Position numbers and translations under genes: made by a program | Shown: positions 4,677 through 43,472 of the stretch, one piece after another | Numbering within the stretch: position 1 is the first letter of the stretch | Layout of the letters: each line of letters begins with the position of its first letter | DNA from: a virus | Strand: one strand, 5' to 3' | IMG/VR virus record: IMGVR_UViG_3300047557_001530 | Location: 96,001-160,000 of that record | Length of the DNA: 64,000 bases | The notes under the pieces: model-generated | Database searches by the model: none | The model's input: only the letters and a program-made list of their open reading frames with translations | Told to the model about the DNA's origin: nothing

Positions 4677-4973
4677 ATGTCTATTCAAGATTTACCAGAT
4701 GATGAAAAAGATGCTATTGATATTTTAGCAAAAGCTGGATACCTCAAAGCTTCCAATGATAAAATTGAAGTATCTTTAGAATCATCAAATACTTTAAATA
4801 TTCAACCAAAGGGAAATGTTTTTGGAGCAAAAGTAAAAGTAGAAAATGATGGAAGCATCACACCTACTCTCACTTTCGACACAAAAAAATTAAGAGATTC
4901 TAAAAGAATAGATGCTAAATCTGCTGTAGATCAAGCACTAGAAGATTATCTGAATGGTGGAGGCAATGTTTAA
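4677..4973 (+). CDS. Hypothetical protein
   Basis: ORF from MSIQDLP, downstream of an ATAAATA late promoter. Confidence 0.6.
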   Translation: MSIQDLPDDEKDAIDILAKAGYLKASNDKIEVSLESSNTLNIQPKGNVFGAKVKVENDGSITPTLTFDTKKLRDSKRIDAKSAVDQALEDYLNGGGNV

Positions 4974-5439
4974 ATTATTTGAAGTTAAGGAAGGAAAATT
5001 AAAAATTTTACCTTCATTAAGGTTTAAAAATATTGGTGGGTTTATTATAATTTCAATTGTTGCAATTATAATTGCTAACTTATCAGGAGCATTGAAAGTA
5101 AATGAAAGAGATCTTTGGAAATTTTATAATCTTTTAATTAATAGACTTGGTTTACAACAGGAACTACCTGACATAAGAGATCATGAAAAACAACTTGACG
5201 CTCAAATTGAATTGGAAGTTGATAAAGCAATTCGTGATTACGAACGCTTGACAGGAGACGATGGAACTGTTAGAATACCACCACCACGACGTTCCGAGAA
5301 ACCAGTAGACACCTCGGTGTGCTACACTCCTGAATGTCAAGCACTTGGAGGAGAAATCCGAATCTGTGCTCCATGGGTTCCAGATTGCCCCTTGACAAAC
5401 CAAGAACAATCTGGTACAATAAACAAGTTGTCTCAGTAG
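4966..5439 (+). CDS. Hypothetical membrane-anchored protein with Cys-rich C-terminus
   Basis: One TM helix; CYTPECQALGGEIRICAPWVPDC; stop codon lies inside tRNA-Arg. Confidence 0.7.
   Translation: MFKLFEVKEGKLKILPSLRFKNIGGFIIISIVAIIIANLSGALKVNERDLWKFYNLLINRLGLQQELPDIRDHEKQLDAQIELEVDKAIRDYERLTGDDGTVRIPPPRRSEKPVDTSVCYTPECQALGGEIRICAPWVPDCPLTNQEQSGTINKLSQ
5392..5420 (+). promoter_or_regulatory. sigma70-type promoter for tRNA-Arg/Val
   Basis: TTGACA-17nt-TACAAT. Confidence 0.85.
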
Positions 5440-5552
5440 CTCAGTGGAATAGAGCAACCGCCTTCGGGAGTTCCGAGTGGACTTAATGGGGAGCATTACC
5501 CTATACTCTCATAAGCGGTCGGTCGCTGGTTCAAATCCAGCCTGAGACGCCA
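5430..5552 (+). tRNA. tRNA-Arg(UCU) interrupted by a 46-nt insertion (5466-5511) between anticodon nt 35 and 36
   Basis: Acceptor GTCTCAG/CTGAGAC, G73, encoded CCA; D-loop with A20; anticodon stem ACCGC/GCGGT; removing 5466-5511 gives loop CT-TCT-AA. Confidence 0.9.
5466..5511 (+). other. Miniature structured tRNA intron-like element, copy 1
   Basis: P1 GGGAGT/ACTCTC, P2 TCC-GAGT-GGA, linker CTTA, P3 ATGGGG-AGCATTA-CCCTAT, terminal A; homologous to 41685-41729. Confidence 0.85.
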
Positions 5553-6499: not shown

Positions 6500-6516
6500 A
6501 CTTTAAACTTACCCTG

Positions 6517-6741
6517 GTGGAGCCAATTACCCTAAATGCTATGTCAGAAGTTAACATGAGGTTTGTCGAAGAACTCGACACAGGTGACAAAGTAATCACG
6601 TATTACAGCGTGAAAGAGATTGACAATCGATTCTACTACGTGTATAATGATGTCAATCACGGTCCTTACGAGGACTTTGACGATGCTGTGGAAGCAGCTT
6701 ATGAAGATTTGATTCTTCAAACAGTCACGGATGGACTATAA
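6517..6741 (+). CDS. Hypothetical protein
   Basis: ORF; HGPYEDFDDAVEAA motif. Confidence 0.6.
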   Translation: MEPITLNAMSEVNMRFVEELDTGDKVITYYSVKEIDNRFYYVYNDVNHGPYEDFDDAVEAAYEDLILQTVTDGL

Positions 6742-6895
6742 CAGCACTGGTCGGGACCCCCTCGATTGTCCTCGTCGGATTGGACATTAAATATGCCGAC
6801 TGGTGCGGATGGGGTTTTTAACTCCCGCCGAGTTTCCAATTTTCTCGTAATCAAAATTGGTGGCGAGCCTGCTCACGGGGATTGACCGTCCCCAC
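6722..6895 (+). ncRNA. manA-like structured RNA
   Basis: Recognised from memory of cyanophage manA RNAs: ATATGCCGACTGGTGCGGATGGG...CCCGCCGAGTTTCC...GGTGGCGAGCCTG; next to a tRNA; boundaries approximate. Confidence 0.65.
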
Positions 6896-7016: not shown

Positions 7017-7898
7017 ATGATGATTCGTTCGTTTATTGCCGCTGGTGTTGCTGCCGCTTCTATGGCTGCTCCTGCTATGGCACAAGTTACCAGTGTTAAG
7101 CAACTGAGTGATGTTCAACCTACCCAGTGGTCGTATCAAGCGATTACTAATCTTGTTGAGCGTTATGGTTGTGTTGCTGGTTATCCCAATGGCACTTTCC
7201 AGCCTGGTCAACCTGCTACCCGTGCTGAGCTTGCTGCTCTCACGAATGCTTGCCTCGACCGTATCACTGAGTTCTACAGTGCTGCTGATGCCGCTCTGGC
7301 TGCTGCTCTCCGTGCTGAGTTCGCTAAAGAAATCGGTGCTACCAATGCCCGTGTGAGTGCTCTGGAACTCGCTGCTGCCCGTAAGGCACAAGGAGTTGGT
7401 AACTACCTTGGTGCTGGTGTACTTCTTAACAAGCAAGGTGTTGCTGGCAACGGTTACACCGAGAACCGTACTATCTCTGGTGCTACCATTCAAGGTCGTT
7501 ATGCTGTGAAGACTTTCAGCAATCAGAATGCTGTTGCTGTTCGTCCTTATGCTAACCTTGTCGGTACTCCTGCTGGTCAGATCGGTGCTGGTGGTGGTGC
7601 TCTCCTCTCTTATGATTGGAGCATTTCCCGTGCTGCTTCTGGTGTGAGCCGTGCTAACATCTACACTGGTGTTGGTTATCAAATTCCTTTCGTGAACGAT
7701 ACTGCTGCTAACTATCAGTCTGCTGTTGGCGAGAAGGGTCAAGTTGTGCTTGCTCTGGGTATCGAAGGTCGTCTGACCAACTCTCTCGTTGGTTTTGCTG
7801 ATCTGAAGTTCCCCACCACCAACGCTGCTAATAGCTATGGTGCTACCAATGGGACTTATTCTCCTGTGTTCACCACGGGTCTCGGCTTCAAGTTCTGA
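7017..7898 (+). CDS. SLH-domain outer-membrane beta-barrel (cyanobacterial porin-like)
   Basis: Signal peptide; SLH motif LSDVQPTQWSYQAITNLVERYGCVAGYPNGTF; amphipathic strands; C-terminal Phe. Confidence 0.85.
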   Translation: MMIRSFIAAGVAAASMAAPAMAQVTSVKQLSDVQPTQWSYQAITNLVERYGCVAGYPNGTFQPGQPATRAELAALTNACLDRITEFYSAADAALAAALRAEFAKEIGATNARVSALELAAARKAQGVGNYLGAGVLLNKQGVAGNGYTENRTISGATIQGRYAVKTFSNQNAVAVRPYANLVGTPAGQIGAGGGALLSYDWSISRAASGVSRANIYTGVGYQIPFVNDTAANYQSAVGEKGQVVLALGIEGRLTNSLVGFADLKFPTTNAANSYGATNGTYSPVFTTGLGFKF

Positions 7899-8926: not shown

Positions 8927-11900
8927 ATGTCTAGACTAAGAGCTGATAGAGTTGTCAACAAAAATGCAAATGGTCCTTTTGAAGCAAGTGAAGGTATTAA
9001 AATACCATTAAATAAATCAATTACTATTGGAACTGATAGTGGTAGCACTGGGGACTTTTTAAAAAAATTAGGTAATAGTTTAGAATGGGGTAGTATTCCT
9101 CCCGCATCTCAAGCAGAACTTGGATTAGTTTATATTGGATCTGGATTAAATGTAGATGAAAACGGATTACTTACCACGCAATTTGATGGCACTCTTGGTG
9201 ATTTGCAAGATGTTGATATAACTACAGATCCTCCAGTTATAGGGCAAGTTTTAAAATGGAATGGTACTAAATGGGTTCCTAATACAGATGCAGTTTTTTC
9301 TGGAGACTATCTAGACTTAATCAATTTACCCGAATTAACTTTAAATGCTATAACTGAAAATGGTAATGCCACGTTGAATGAAATTCTTATTGGTGGGTTG
9401 GGAGTTTATGATCCTACTAATACAGATAGAAATAGTTTTTATGAATGGAGCGGTGATACTTATAATCAATATATTGAGACATTAACTAATCTAGGTAAAT
9501 ATAATATTACCATTGATGGTAATACAATTCTTTATGTTCATACCAAATCTGGGGATAATAATCCAGGTGTTGGAATCAATAAAGTTCCTGCGTTTAAAGG
9601 TCTTGATGTAGCAGGTAATTTTGGATTGAATGGTAGTATTCATATTAATGAAAGTATTAGATATGTACAATCATTGGTTCCAGAATCTACTGCTACCAAT
9701 ATCGATTTAGGATCAACTACTAGATTGTGGAGATCTGGATATTTTCAAACTAGTGTATTGATTGGTTCTGGCACAGATACTGGAACAGCCAATCAAAAAC
9801 TTCAAGTTACTGGTGGTGCTTATGTTTCTGATAATGTAGGTATAGGATACACAGCACCAACAGATAAGTTGGCAGTTAATGGCAATGAATATGTTAATGG
9901 AAACATTACTTTAACTGGCGAACTTCGTGGTCCTTCTGTATTTGTAATTGATCCAGCGGTAGTTGGAAACAATACAGGAACAGTTCAAATTAAAGGTGAT
10001 CTTCAAGTTGATGGAACGACCACCACAATTAATTCTACGATTACAAGTATTGCTGACCCTATCGTAGAACTAAGAAGAGGCAATTCTTTATTAGGTGCTG
10101 ATGGTGGCATTCAAGTTAACTTAACGACCAATGGCACTGGCACTGTTACTTCATACCAGAGAGTACAATGGAACAATAGCAATACTCGCTGGGAAACAAC
10201 TGACGGCACTACACCAAAACCAATTGTTAATACTGTAGATAACTTTACTGTTGGTGGTACATTTACTTTTAACAATAACGTCACTTTTGGTGACGTAGTA
10301 ACTGACACTATTACAGTAAACTCACAGTTTGTAAATGGAACTAAGCTTAGAACTGCACAAAATATAAGCAACACTCTTGCATTGGCAGCATATGATGTTG
10401 ATGGAACATCCTATACAGATTTAATTACATTAACTGCATCTAATACACCAACACTAACACTGGTTTCTACTGGAGTTGGTTCTATTAACAACATGAACAT
10501 CGGTGCTACTACAAGAGCTACTGGTGCGTTCACAACTCTAGATGCTAATAGCACAACAACGATCAATCCAGCAAACGCTAACGTATCTATTACTCCTTCT
10601 GGAACTGGAGTTTTAACAATTTCTTCTGGTGCAGTTGGTTCAATTAATAATGTAAATATCGGTGCCACCACTAGAGGCACTGGTGCTTTCACAACTCTAG
10701 ATGCTAACGGTACTGTTATTCTGGGAGATGCTTCTGCAGATACAGTTACTGTAAATGGAACTTCTACGTTTAATGCTGATGTTACCTTAAATACTAATCT
10801 TACTATAGGAAATGCTGATACTGATACAGTCACTATTTCTTCTCAATTTGCTGCAAGTACCCAACTTAAAACTTCCAAGGGAACAAATGAAACATTAAAT
10901 ATTGCAGCTTATGATGTAGATGGAACTGCGTATACTAATTTAATTACTTTAACTGCAGCGAATAATCCTTTACTAACAATTAGTTCTGTTGCTACAGGTA
11001 CAATTAATAACATGAGCATCGGTGCATCTACTAGAAGCACTGGTGCTTTTACTACATTGCAAGCAAATAGCACCACCACAATTAACCCAGCAAACGCTAA
11101 CGTATCTATTACTCCTTCAGGAACTGGGGTTTTAACTATTTCTTCTGGTGCTGTAGGTGCTATTGACAATGTAAATATCGGTGCCAGCACTAGAGGTACT
11201 GGTGCATTTACAACATTAAATGCTAATGGTGATGTTACTCTCGGTGATGCATCAACTGATAACGTAACAGTAAATGCAACTTCCACATTCAATTCTAGCG
11301 TTACTTTATCTGGTGTAACTTCTAATTTAATTGTTGGAGGTGAACTTCGTGGTCCTTCTGTATTTGTAATTGATCCTGCTGTTGTTGGTGATGATACAGG
11401 TCTTGTCAGAATTAAAGGTAATCTTGAAGTTCTTGGTACAACCACAACTATTAACTCAACAGTAACTACAATTGCAGATCCTTTCCTTGAACTTCGTAGA
11501 GGTAATTCTTTAACCGCTGCGGATGGTGGTATTCAAGTTAATTTAACTACAGACGGTTCGGGAAATGTTACTTCATCTCAAACTATTCAATGGAATAATT
11601 CTTCATTGAGATGGGAAACTACCGATGGTACTACTGCAAAACCAATCGTTAATACAGTAGATAGTTTTACATTTGCGAGTTCTATTTCTTTTGATGCAAA
11701 CGTAACATTAGGCAATGCTGTATCTGATACGATTACTGTAAACTCACAGTTTGTAAATGGAACTCAATTTAGATCTTCGCAATCAAATGGCAACACACTT
11801 GCAATTGCTGCATATGATTTAGATGGAACTACTTATACTAATTTAATTACATTAACTGCATCTAATACTCCAACATTAACATTAGTTTCTACTGGTGTTG

Positions 11901-18020: not shown

Positions 18021-18044
18021 CGAATTATTCAAATATATAAAATA

Positions 18045-18153
18045 CGTTCATCCCTCTGGGACGGAAGTAAGCCGACTCGGAACGCATCGTTCATTTACAA
18101 AATTCTACACAAAGTATCGAATTTTGTAAACGGAAAAGCCGACTGAAGGAACG
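18045..18153 (+). ncRNA. Tandem glutamine riboswitch aptamers (glnA / Downstream-peptide type)
   Basis: CGTTCA-TCCC/GGGA-CGGAAGTAAGCCGACTCGGAACG, then CGTTCA-long hairpin-CGGAAAAGCCGACTGAAGGAACG, upstream of a YRG-motif gene. Confidence 0.8.
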
Positions 18154-40876: not shown

Positions 40877-41143
40877 ATGAAATACACATTATCTCAAGCA
40901 TATTGTTTTTATATGGGTGAGGTTGTGCGTATGTATTTCATACAAGGTCTTCCATATACTTTTGATGAATTACCTCAATTAATACAAGATCATCCTTCAG
41001 TTCAAACTGAAGCACTCGGTCATCGTGATTACGATGATGAAGATCTTTATAAAGTATCAAATTATTTAATTATGGAAGAAATGCATCCACTTATGTTTGA
41101 ATTGCCGATAGAAAATCCAGATTTATTACCTAAAGATGATTAA
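40877..41143 (+). CDS. Conserved cyanophage hypothetical protein
   Basis: MKYTLSQAYCF...MYFIQGLPYTFDEL...EEMHPL. Confidence 0.75.
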   Translation: MKYTLSQAYCFYMGEVVRMYFIQGLPYTFDELPQLIQDHPSVQTEALGHRDYDDEDLYKVSNYLIMEEMHPLMFELPIENPDLLPKDD

Positions 41144-41660
41144 CGAATTTTTTAGATTAATTGAGGGAAGATTTGAAAATAAAATTCAAGCAATGTCTCA
41201 TCCTTCAAAGTATGCTATGATTCGTGTCACCCATGTTAATTTGGGTGGCGGATTAATATATGGTGAACAAGCATACAATTATCAATTACATAAACCATAT
41301 CGTCAATTTGTTCTTGAACCTAAACAAGAAGATAATCAAATTAGAATTTATAATTACGAAATTATTGATAAAGAAAATTATACTGGATTTCAAAGGCTTG
41401 ACGAAATTGACCGTGATGTGCTAAAATTGAAACCTGGCTGTGATGTCGTGGTCAGTCAACAAGGGGAGTCTTTTGTGGGGGGTATACAAGGATGCGATTG
41501 TATGGTAGACTGGATGGGTCGTCAAACCTACCTCCAAAACGAAATTGAGTTGACACCAACTCACTATTACGTTATGGACCGAGGATTCTGTGCTGAACAC
41601 AAACATCAGCTTTGGGGTTCTAAATATGGTAGGTTTGAATTTGTTAGAATGCCTCTTTAG
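41136..41660 (+). CDS. cpeT: CpeT/CpcT-type phycobilin lyase
   Basis: N..QA..HP, EQAYNY...PYRQ, GCD, DRGF....WGS. Confidence 0.88.
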   Translation: MINEFFRLIEGRFENKIQAMSHPSKYAMIRVTHVNLGGGLIYGEQAYNYQLHKPYRQFVLEPKQEDNQIRIYNYEIIDKENYTGFQRLDEIDRDVLKLKPGCDVVVSQQGESFVGGIQGCDCMVDWMGRQTYLQNEIELTPTHYYVMDRGFCAEHKHQLWGSKYGRFEFVRMPL

Positions 41661-41767
41661 CTCAGTGGTAGAGCACCCGCCTTGGGTCTTGAAAGTTCTT
41701 TAAATAGGGAGCATTACCCTATAAGATCATAAGCGGGCGGTCATCAGTTCAAATCTGATAGGGGGCT
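41651..41767 (+). tRNA. tRNA-Thr(UGU) interrupted by a 45-nt insertion (41685-41729) between anticodon nt 35 and 36
   Basis: Acceptor GCCTCTT/AGGGGGC, U73; stem CCCGC/GCGGG; removing 41685-41729 gives loop CT-TGT-AA. Confidence 0.9.
41685..41729 (+). other. Miniature structured tRNA intron-like element, copy 2
   Basis: P1 GGTCTT/AAGATC, linker ..TTTAA, P3 ATAGGG-AGCATTA-CCCTAT, terminal A. Confidence 0.85.
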
Positions 41768-41875
41768 TTGGTAGTCGTTAGGCAGATAGCCTAGAAAGAC
41801 GCCAACTTCTACTCTGGGTATCTTCCAGAGCGTCGTATGGGGAAGGGTTGGAAACGTCCGAATCTTCCCCCACAT

Positions 41876-41950: not shown

Positions 41951-42023
41951 ACTCCTGTTAGTCTATTGGTAAGGACGGGTGGACAACACACATGGAAACT
42001 GGGTTCAATTCCCAGCCAGGAGT
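41951..42023 (+). pseudogene. tRNA-like element with non-canonical anticodon arm
   Basis: ACTCCTG/CAGGAGT acceptor, D-arm and perfect T-arm; anticodon region GTG-GACAACA-CAC lacks U33. Confidence 0.7.
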
Positions 42024-42068
42024 AACACCCCTCAAGCCTCTCAACGATGCTCAAACAGAGGGGTCACT

Positions 42069-43016: not shown

Positions 43017-43107
43017 GGGAGAGTGGCTACTGTTGGCAATATGTGTGGCTGCGGTCTGTAAAACCGTTACATCGGAACCATCGGGGGTTCAATTCCCTCC
43101 TCTCCCA
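43017..43107 (+). tRNA. tRNA-Tyr(GUA) with enlarged D-arm
   Basis: GGGAGAG/CTCTCCC; loop CT-GTA-AA; long variable region. Confidence 0.85.
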
Positions 43108-43111
43108 CCTT

Positions 43112-43335: not shown

Positions 43336-43337
43336 CT

Positions 43338-43468
43338 TGGGTTGCTGCCCGATATGAGAAACACTCCTGTATTTCTAGGATACGGTAGGGTGAAAACTCG
43401 GAATTACCTCTGCCCCGTCTCTTGGGGATGCGAATTGAGGAAAGGTAAAGGGAAGAGACAGCAACCCA
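43338..43468 (+). ncRNA. Unidentified structured RNA between tRNA-Phe and tRNA-Ile
   Basis: 10-bp closing stem TGGGTTGCTG/CAGCAACCCA, several internal helices, potential pseudoknot. Confidence 0.7.
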
Positions 43469-43472
43469 TATT

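Follow-up and report, generated by a model that had tools for sequence, protein, structure and literature searches.

To our knowledge, tRNA splicing in bacteria and phages is known only through self-splicing group I introns. Such introns sit in bacterial tRNA anticodon loops (PMC3984707) and, as described there, share with the insert studied here a similar site, mobility and a patchy distribution; they differ in being about 200 nt or more in length and in possessing a catalytic core, an exon-terminal U and a terminal G, all of which are missing in our case. The tRNA introns of Lak megaphages, termed 'enigmatic', include one that 'may encode a tRNA' (Devoto et al. 2019, PMC6784885, Fig. 4, Table S6), and this remark is repeated in two sentences for jumbo phages (PMC13037316); the passages concerned in these two papers note the insert class and leave its mechanism ungiven. 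As far as those passages go, the Lak introns resemble our insert in that they interrupt the anticodon loop of a phage tRNA (including Thr(UGU)), are tRNA-shaped, end just past the acceptor stem, are gained or lost precisely and have no Rfam intron match. However, they are about 79-114 nt long, place a 5′ hairpin and an A-rich linker before the tRNA-like part and are best read at 36/37, whereas the insert described here comes from a cyanophage, measures 45 nt, begins flush with +1 without a leader hairpin, sits at 35/36 and has a variant T-loop.

Archaeal and eukaryal tRNA introns (BHB; EndA plus RtcB or Trl1) are likewise short, located in the anticodon loop and protein-spliced, the last being what we propose here; in our case, however, there is no BHB, neither EndA nor RtcB was found in the phage, and a nested tRNA fold would set the junctions. 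T4 Pnk and Rnl1 repair tRNA-Lys cut by PrrC. That repair shares with our proposal an anticodon-loop break sealed by a phage ligase, but the break repaired by T4 comes from a defence nuclease and has to be healed, whereas here two programmed cuts would leave ligatable ends. Finally, tRNA-like RNase P/RNase Z signals occur in long RNAs, as in mascRNA, menRNA and mitochondrial tRNA punctuation. Signals of the mascRNA type match our insert in being small, elbow-bearing mimics of the acceptor/T-stem with no anticodon arm and with cut sites at +1 and after N73; they release their flanks, whereas here the flanks are two tRNA halves that would need rejoining. Processing signals of this sort are the subject of a general remark in PMC4810234.

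A 45-nt insert in a cyanophage tRNA-Thr gene

The window analysed here is a stretch of 64,000 nt, bases 96001-160000 of a 171,368-nt phage contig whose genome (label G000) is about 88% complete; L-numbers denote loci fetched for comparison. PsbA, CpeT and T4-like core genes, together with wcaG, abiF and glutamine-riboswitch RNAs, identify the source virus as a T4-like cyanophage. The known cyanophage RNAs lie at 6766-6874 (wcaG), 18043-18088 (glutamine riboswitch) and 42028-42064 (abiF) of the window (Rfam). Two tRNA genes of the window are split by related inserts, with the following features:

41136..41660, +: cpeT (PF06206), the synteny anchor; its stop codon lies within tRNA positions 8-10
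41398..41427, +: sigma70-like promoter match upstream of the Thr gene (10/12, extended -10; consensus match only)
41651..41684, +: 5′ exon of tRNA-Thr(UGU), positions 1-35, ending U34 G35, as placed by orthologous uninterrupted genes
41685..41729, +: tRNA-shaped insert of 45 nt, running exactly from tRNA-like position +1 to the discriminator
41685..41690, +: 5′ strand of the acceptor-like stem (P1), with G1-C72 and G2.U71; its first base is the predicted RNase P site
41691..41698, +: mini D hairpin with a 2-bp stem and AAGU loop; A18 is 41694, G19 is 41695
41699..41703, +: variable linker (YUUA in the earlier note), 3-6 nt among sister inserts and varying in sequence
41704..41722, +: T-arm (P3 in the earlier note), a 6-bp stem plus variant T-loop
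41710-41716, +: variant T-loop, A54 G55 C56 A57 U58 U59 A60
41723..41729, +: 3′ strand of the acceptor-like stem plus the unpaired discriminator A73 (41729); the predicted RNase Z site is directly 3′
41730..41767, +: 3′ exon of tRNA-Thr, starting U36 A37 A38; CCA is not encoded
5430..5549, +: tRNA-Arg(UCU), the paralogous host (copy 1), split at 35/36 as is tRNA-Thr
5466..5511, +: sister insert of 46 nt in tRNA-Arg(UCU), with the variant elbow A18.G55 and A54-U58; near-identical in L023, L024 and L029

The tRNA-Thr(UGU) gene at 41651-41767 (+), corresponding to a 117-nt precursor, was recognized by the Rfam tRNA model (54.5 bits). ARAGORN missed it without the intron option and, with that option, miscalled it as tRNA-Pro(UGG) and copy 1, Arg(UCU), as Arg(UCG)—annotation tools misassign tRNA genes split in this way. 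Beyond the two split genes, no further Thr or Arg(UCU) tRNA genes were found in the genome, in which ACA accounts for 36% of the codons for Thr and AGA for 54% of those for Arg.

Four placements of the junction would give a canonical anticodon loop, namely 33/34 (Met), 34/35 (Ile), 35/36 (Thr) and 36/37 (Pro). The site is fixed at 35/36 by 73 uninterrupted tRNA-Thr(UGU) genes in 80 cpeT loci and by the insert-free Thr gene of L172, which is identical to the joined exons at 70 of 72 positions, the difference amounting to one compensated pair. The junction in tRNA-Arg(UCU) is likewise fixed at 35/36, by 25 uninterrupted orthologues; Met, Ile, Pro and Arg(UCG) anticodons are ruled out by synteny and body identity. 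The sequence, length and site that the earlier note had given for the insert in tRNA-Thr(UGU) are thereby borne out by Rfam, synteny and L172. Because the identical Thr insert is present in Logan contigs of SRR30127143 and SRR35355768, two independent assemblies, an assembly error can be excluded for it.

Features of group I introns were looked for directly. The 5′ exon ends in G35 (C35 in Arg) and the insert in CA, providing neither the base for a U.G pair nor a terminal G, and the insert lacks a P3-P7/P4-P6 catalytic core and gave no RF00028 match, with L185 (64.7 bits) as positive control. In the control, a group I intron about 200 nt long interrupts an orthologous cyanophage tRNA-Arg(UCU) at 34/35 (RF00028, 64.7 bits; L185, L186 3553-3830, +); the orthologous tRNA-Arg(UCU) is thus a target of two unrelated intron types, one base apart. 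Further candidate classes were tried and rejected: a group II intron (the insert starts GGUCU and ends CA rather than GUGYG...AY, with no domain V or Rfam match), a BHB (no register reaches 4/4 of the 4-bp central helix, the best being 3/4 in Thr only and 1/4 in Arg at the true junction), an HDV-like or theta ribozyme (the candidate P2 is not conserved, on inspection there is no room for P4/J4/2, and there is no Rfam match), a Y RNA/Ro60 module (no TROVE PF05731 in G000) and an IS200/IS605-derived element (no PF01797; only two copies, both in anticodons).

The surroundings of the gene contain other RNAs worth recording. Three stacked hairpins between tRNA-Thr and tRNA-Met (41770-41875) are partly conserved in 17 related loci and have no Rfam match, and a 136-nt multi-helix RNA between tRNA-Phe and tRNA-Ile (43337-43472) is identical in L335, with no Rfam match at gathering score. 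At 41951-42024, ARAGORN calls a Leu(CAA) tRNA-like gene without a long variable arm or U33; it has no Rfam match and is conserved in 34 related loci, several at 93-98%. At 43017-43109, a tRNA whose loop reads Tyr(GUA) and whose D arm is enlarged is miscalled Arg(GCG) by ARAGORN; it is conserved in seven loci. Among the fetched loci, L216 has an unassigned ORF between cpeT and tRNA-Thr (1027-1371) with no counterpart in the window, and L024 a permuted tmRNA call (962-1261) beside its insert-bearing tRNA-Arg.

Comparative evidence for a miniature tRNA fold

The two inserts of the window have a 17-nt word in common, the longest in 3000 shuffles being 11 nt. Folding energy alone is unremarkable (z -1.6 and -0.9 for the two inserts, not significant), and the evidence for structure is therefore comparative; the MFE fold agrees with the 12-bp stack of acceptor and T-stem. 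Between the two copies, the covariation in P1 reported by the earlier note is confirmed, with pairs 3, 4 and 5 altered on both strands and the G-C and G.U pairs at the junction kept. Its description of P3 was right in that one G.U becomes A-U and the loop is identical in both copies, but the loop it took to be invariant is a canonical T-loop in sister inserts.

We collected these sisters by a scan independent of the insert sequence and by a T-loop scan. Both the length and the site and layout recur in Arg, Thr and Asn tRNAs with canonical UUCRANU loops (at the place of the T-loop in L201, L204, L205, L226 and L238), most of the canonical-loop inserts being from related cyanophages. Pairs were counted in nine sisters on a structure-segmented alignment; MAFFT misaligned the acceptor stem, and an RNAalifold-based model of the inserts captured the T-arm only. 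In total, 106 of 108 stem cells are paired, compared with a mean of 72 and a maximum of 86 in 5000 shuffles that ignore relatedness. In all nine, an acceptor-like stem and a T-stem of 6 bp each are stacked beneath a 7-nt loop, and in every one of them C61 to base 72 spans 12 nt and is followed by a single unpaired base. Homologues thus keep and covary both helices, which upholds the view that structure-level selection acts on a functional family.

A 2-bp hairpin with a conserved RRGU loop at 41691-41698 had been overlooked; across the nine sisters its stem is G-C/A-U or C-G/C-G. The G19-C56 contact is present in all nine. The five canonical members have G.U at 18-55 and U-A at 54-58; in the four with AGCAUUA loops these pairs read A.G and A-U—a joint switch that may reflect just one evolutionary event, or two. 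A control is available in the ordinary tRNAs of the fetched loci: the D-loop GG is missing in seven of nine tRNAs with G55 versus 22 of 1442 with U55, and the Ile and Val tRNAs of L291 combine AGCGUUA T-loops with AG in the D-loop. By these controls, the 'invariant loop' is a T-loop variant that occurs naturally and comes with a D-loop to match; a published description of an A18.G55 T-loop variant was not found, and the claim rests on these ordinary phage tRNAs. Ordinary phage tRNAs that have T-loops of the AGCG type and lack GG in the D-loop are located at 7608-7681 and 10544-10617 (-) of L291, 2846-2919 of L235 and 6506-6580 (-) of L233.

By comparison, then, the insert has the T-loop motif and the D/T elbow (54-58, 18-55, 19-56). 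Its T-loop is non-canonical, yet the elbow appears to be retained by a compensating change in the D-loop. Judged from the aligned sequences, the insert is a minimal tRNA mimic composed of an acceptor-like stem, a 2-bp D hairpin, a linker in place of the anticodon arm, a T-arm and a discriminator. Two structural suggestions of the earlier note did not survive this comparison. A pseudoknot or guide between the YUUA linker and the UAAG of the 3′ exon could form in both copies of the window, but close homologues disrupt it, the linker of the Arg-copy homologues reading CUCA in L023/L024 and ACAA in L029 with both helices retained. Nor can the G-C/G.U junction pairs and the invariant loop be read as ribozyme-like, the loop being a T-loop variant that is canonical in sisters.

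Insert ends across a wider class

Inserts of this general design form a size series: at one end stands a nested tRNA-Phe that is complete (L219), at the other are forms of 43-46 nt, and between them lie forms of 58-73 nt whose D and anticodon arms are shrunken; the 45-nt cyanophage insert is among the smallest found here. A second insert group has a leader hairpin, as in Lak phages. The complete tRNA-Phe(GAA) of L219 lies in the anticodon loop of a tRNA best read as Arg(UCU) (4972-5121, +), and an Asn(GUU)-like complete tRNA lies in the anticodon loop of another tRNA in L277 (near 1815, -); both nested tRNAs are candidate young, unshrunk inserts.

For an analysis of the ends, we considered 28 phage inserts in which the nested +1 lies where a junction is possible. 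With the 5′ junction set at +1, the anticodon expected from the host body is obtained in 17 of 17 decidable cases; among the rest, the body vote is unreachable by any junction in two and unclear in nine. The junctions fall at 34/35 (7), 35/36 (16) and 36/37 (5): a site fixed at 35/36 throughout the family, as first supposed, holds for the cyanophage subfamily, and the wider class also uses its two neighbours. The 3′ overhang is 1 nt in ten inserts, 4 nt and NCCA-like in 13 (exactly NCCA in eight of these), 2 nt in four, 6 nt in one and 3 nt in none, and the base after N73 is U in 10/10 inserts with a 1-nt overhang. As predicted before the test, CCA is encoded in 4/61 neighbouring tRNA genes for the 1-nt group versus 73/78 for the 4-nt group, counts that overstate independence since the 1-nt group consists mostly of related cyanophages, one phage clade. 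L200 is an exception to this correlation, and the five of 28 inserts with 2- or 6-nt overhangs fall outside a simple N73/CCA rule. The exactness of the ends could also reflect the mode of origin rather than that of removal.

The insert is rare, being present in 0/73 Thr orthologues and, by pattern, in 0/44 related contigs. An exact-motif scan of viral contigs for the AGCAUUA hairpin gave no match, a scan of 185,579 prokaryote genomes no member of the insert class, and BLAST against GenBank phages matched the exon halves only; a flank-based scan returned 22 matches, all by chance.

Other unusual tRNA arrangements came to light in the fetched loci. Anticodon inserts of different design are a 28-nt hairpin in L199 (10969-11070, -) and a 44-nt insert in a tRNA of a bacterial genome (L152, 1318-1433). 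L121 has a Pro-like tRNA with a possible insert (near 1612, -), and possible long inserts with a tRNA-like 3′ end separate matching tRNA halves in L236 (689 nt) and L304 (576 nt). Orphan 3′ tRNA halves that start near position 37, directly after a complete tRNA, occur in many of L217-L334 (such as L247, L231 and L240); 97 matches have a perfect downstream T-stem, and a 5′ half was found for only 25. These orphans could be att-like remnants, halves that lost their 5′ exons, or halves joined in trans.

Proposed removal, origin and significance

We lean towards the reading that the insert is a protein-spliced intron, which host RNase P and then RNase Z would excise and a phage ligase would seal. 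RNase P would read the elbow and cut before G+1, the 5′ splice site, leaving exon 1 with a 3′-OH; RNase Z would then cut after the discriminator A73, the 3′ splice site, giving exon 2 a 5′-phosphate. The tRNA fold would keep the cut halves paired, and an ATP-dependent phage RNA ligase of the T4 Rnl1 type or the DRB0094/Rnl2 type would seal them without end-healing, producing a normal tRNA-Thr(UGU). Exons with a 3′-OH and a 5′-phosphate, as RNase P/RNase Z chemistry leaves them, are a substrate for an ATP-dependent ligase and not for RtcB. The insert junctions coincide with the +1 and post-N73 cut sites, and the trailer is UAA, not C or CCA. Both enzymes are present in cyanobacteria (PMC10989914). 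RNase P grips the elbow and uses the acceptor/T stack as its ruler, while RNase Z, which also binds the elbow, trims precursors devoid of CCA (PMC4810234), cutting after the discriminator, or after CCA if present, and leaving a 3′-OH, with suppression by a C after N73 (PMC7479834); the archaeal RNase Z enzymes tested required a mature 5′ end and tolerated missing arms (PMC7479834). Both nucleases may be hindered by how short the leader (4 nt) and the trailer (3 nt) are and by their closure through the anticodon stem. An experimental demonstration of tRNA splicing by RNase P, RNase Z and a ligase was not found in the literature, and in that on phage tRNA introns no mechanism was found for such inserts.

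The phage encodes a T4 Rnl1 homologue (164627-165796; PF09511, E 6e-30; match to the T4 Rnl1 structure, E 8e-22) and a DRB0094-type ligase (167496-168539), together with a kinase of the Pnk type and a HAD phosphatase, each stand-alone; the set lies at G000 164627-168539, about 4.6-8.5 kb past the end of the window (counterpart in L169, 4828-8740). The KxDG motifs of the ligases are intact, as are the kinase and phosphatase motifs. Because this ligase/Pnk set is also present in insert-free freshwater relatives, we regard the ligases as a precondition rather than a signature; the set was not found in three near-complete related cyanophage genomes. An RNA ligase occurs in 8/10 near-complete insert-bearing genomes (in the other two, none above the cut-off was found) versus 5/13 comparison genomes and 1/4 insert-free cyanophages, a weak enrichment, drawn against a set made impure by genomes with orphan tRNA halves and between genomes of different size. 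RtcB was not found in any of 25 phage records, and EndA, RNase Z-like, TROVE, HNH, GIY-YIG, reverse transcriptase and Y1 transposase genes were not found in G000 (88% complete). That the product matters is suggested by the perfect host bodies, by a compensated T-stem change, by the status of the split genes as the sole Thr and Arg(UCU) genes found and by the heavy use of ACA and AGA.

It is unlikely, in our estimation, that the insert is trimmed or left in place and the halves are never rejoined, the gene carrying a tRNA mimic or a two-elbow decoy and the phage tRNA-Thr being dispensable. Such a decoy would soak up host tRNA-binding or anticodon-nuclease proteins, and G1, G2 and the G2.U71 wobble might flag the mimic for turnover. 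Phage tRNAs are often non-essential, which would suit this reading, as would the rarity of the insert in Thr orthologues and related contigs and the many orphan 3′ halves right after tRNA ends in other phages. It is, however, at odds with host bodies that stay perfect, with the compensatory T-stem change between insert-bearing Arg genes, and with the restoration, upon removal, of an exact 7-nt loop and the right anticodon in all 17 decidable cases.

The insert might also be an intron in which a dedicated phage endonuclease, or another elbow-reading host endonuclease, cuts one or both sites, with Pnk healing and Rnl1 sealing the ends. We hold this to be distinctly unlikely: the junctions lie exactly on the RNase P/RNase Z sites and track the CCA habit of each phage, and EndA, RNase Z-like, HNH and GIY-YIG genes were not found in G000, although the phage has a full heal-and-seal kit with many small ORFs of no known function nearby, some overhangs measure 2 or 6 nt, and RNase P or Z may be ill served by a leader and trailer so constrained.

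A mobile miniature element acting at the DNA level (IS200/IS605-like, MITE-like or homing), which would knock out the tRNA and use its structure for single-stranded DNA transposition, seems improbable. Gain or loss is precise and without target duplication (L029 vs L172), and both window copies share the 11-nt context GCCTTS^TAAGC, which only 5/73 Thr orthologues have and which hints at transfer by short homology or at a sequence-specific step. A free-standing HNH gene, absent from the window, lies in the tRNA cluster of the closest relative (L335, 3564-4031). But the copies number two in the genome and are confined to anticodon loops, their conserved features are tRNA tertiary contacts, and neither a Y1 transposase (PF01797) nor HNH, GIY-YIG or reverse transcriptase genes were found in G000; homing, for its part, may explain spread but not removal. 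The Thr gene body of the closest relative is quite different from that of the window, implying turnover of tRNA cassettes as entire units.

A self-excising mini-ribozyme (HDV/theta-like or a group I remnant) guided by the YUUA/UAAG pseudoknot is very improbable. The 5′ junction does lie at the foot of a helix starting G-C, G.U, and the order P1-linker-P3-loop-P3-P1 is loosely HDV-like, but the pseudoknot pairing is lost in L023, L024 and L029, the loop is that of a T-arm, the exon-terminal U and the terminal G are both missing, and no Rfam ribozyme or intron matched even at E 10 in a search that detected the group I intron of an orthologue. Least probable of all is a role of P3 as a decoy that lures fMet-specific nucleases by resembling the anticodon stem-loop of initiator tRNA, for its 7-nt loop, central CAU and three closing G-C pairs in the window copies are countered by a G-C to A-U change in L029, by the lack of U33 and of a purine at 37 and by homologous loops that are T-loops.

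Returning to excision by RNase P and RNase Z followed by ligation, we speculate that the insert began as a processed tRNA that became ligated into an anticodon loop after cleavage, was then fixed at the DNA level and was reduced to the minimal form that the enzymes can still read. An origin by ligation would explain both the exact ends and the variable sites; it would require a reverse transcriptase, which was not found in G000. Whether these inserts constitute a distinct kind of phage tRNA intron—removed by RNase P/RNase Z, sealed by a phage ligase and born by tRNA ligation into a nuclease-cut anticodon loop—is in our view evenly balanced.

To what has been noted before, this case adds a minimal-size cyanophage subfamily, a non-canonical T-loop compensated in the D-loop and the match between 3′ ends and CCA habit; the splicing route itself would be new, if shown. 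The locus offers a practical test case, with a 117-nt precursor, studied cyanobacterial RNase P and RNase Z, two ligases in the genome and natural double-mutant pairs (A18.G55 vs G18.U55). If the proposal is true, tRNA end-trimming enzymes and a phage ligase would together make up a protein-based splicing route, which would explain phage tRNA introns that have been 'enigmatic' since 2019. Phage RNA ligases would then gain a programmed substrate beyond repair, and tRNA supply would be conditional on a phage enzyme.
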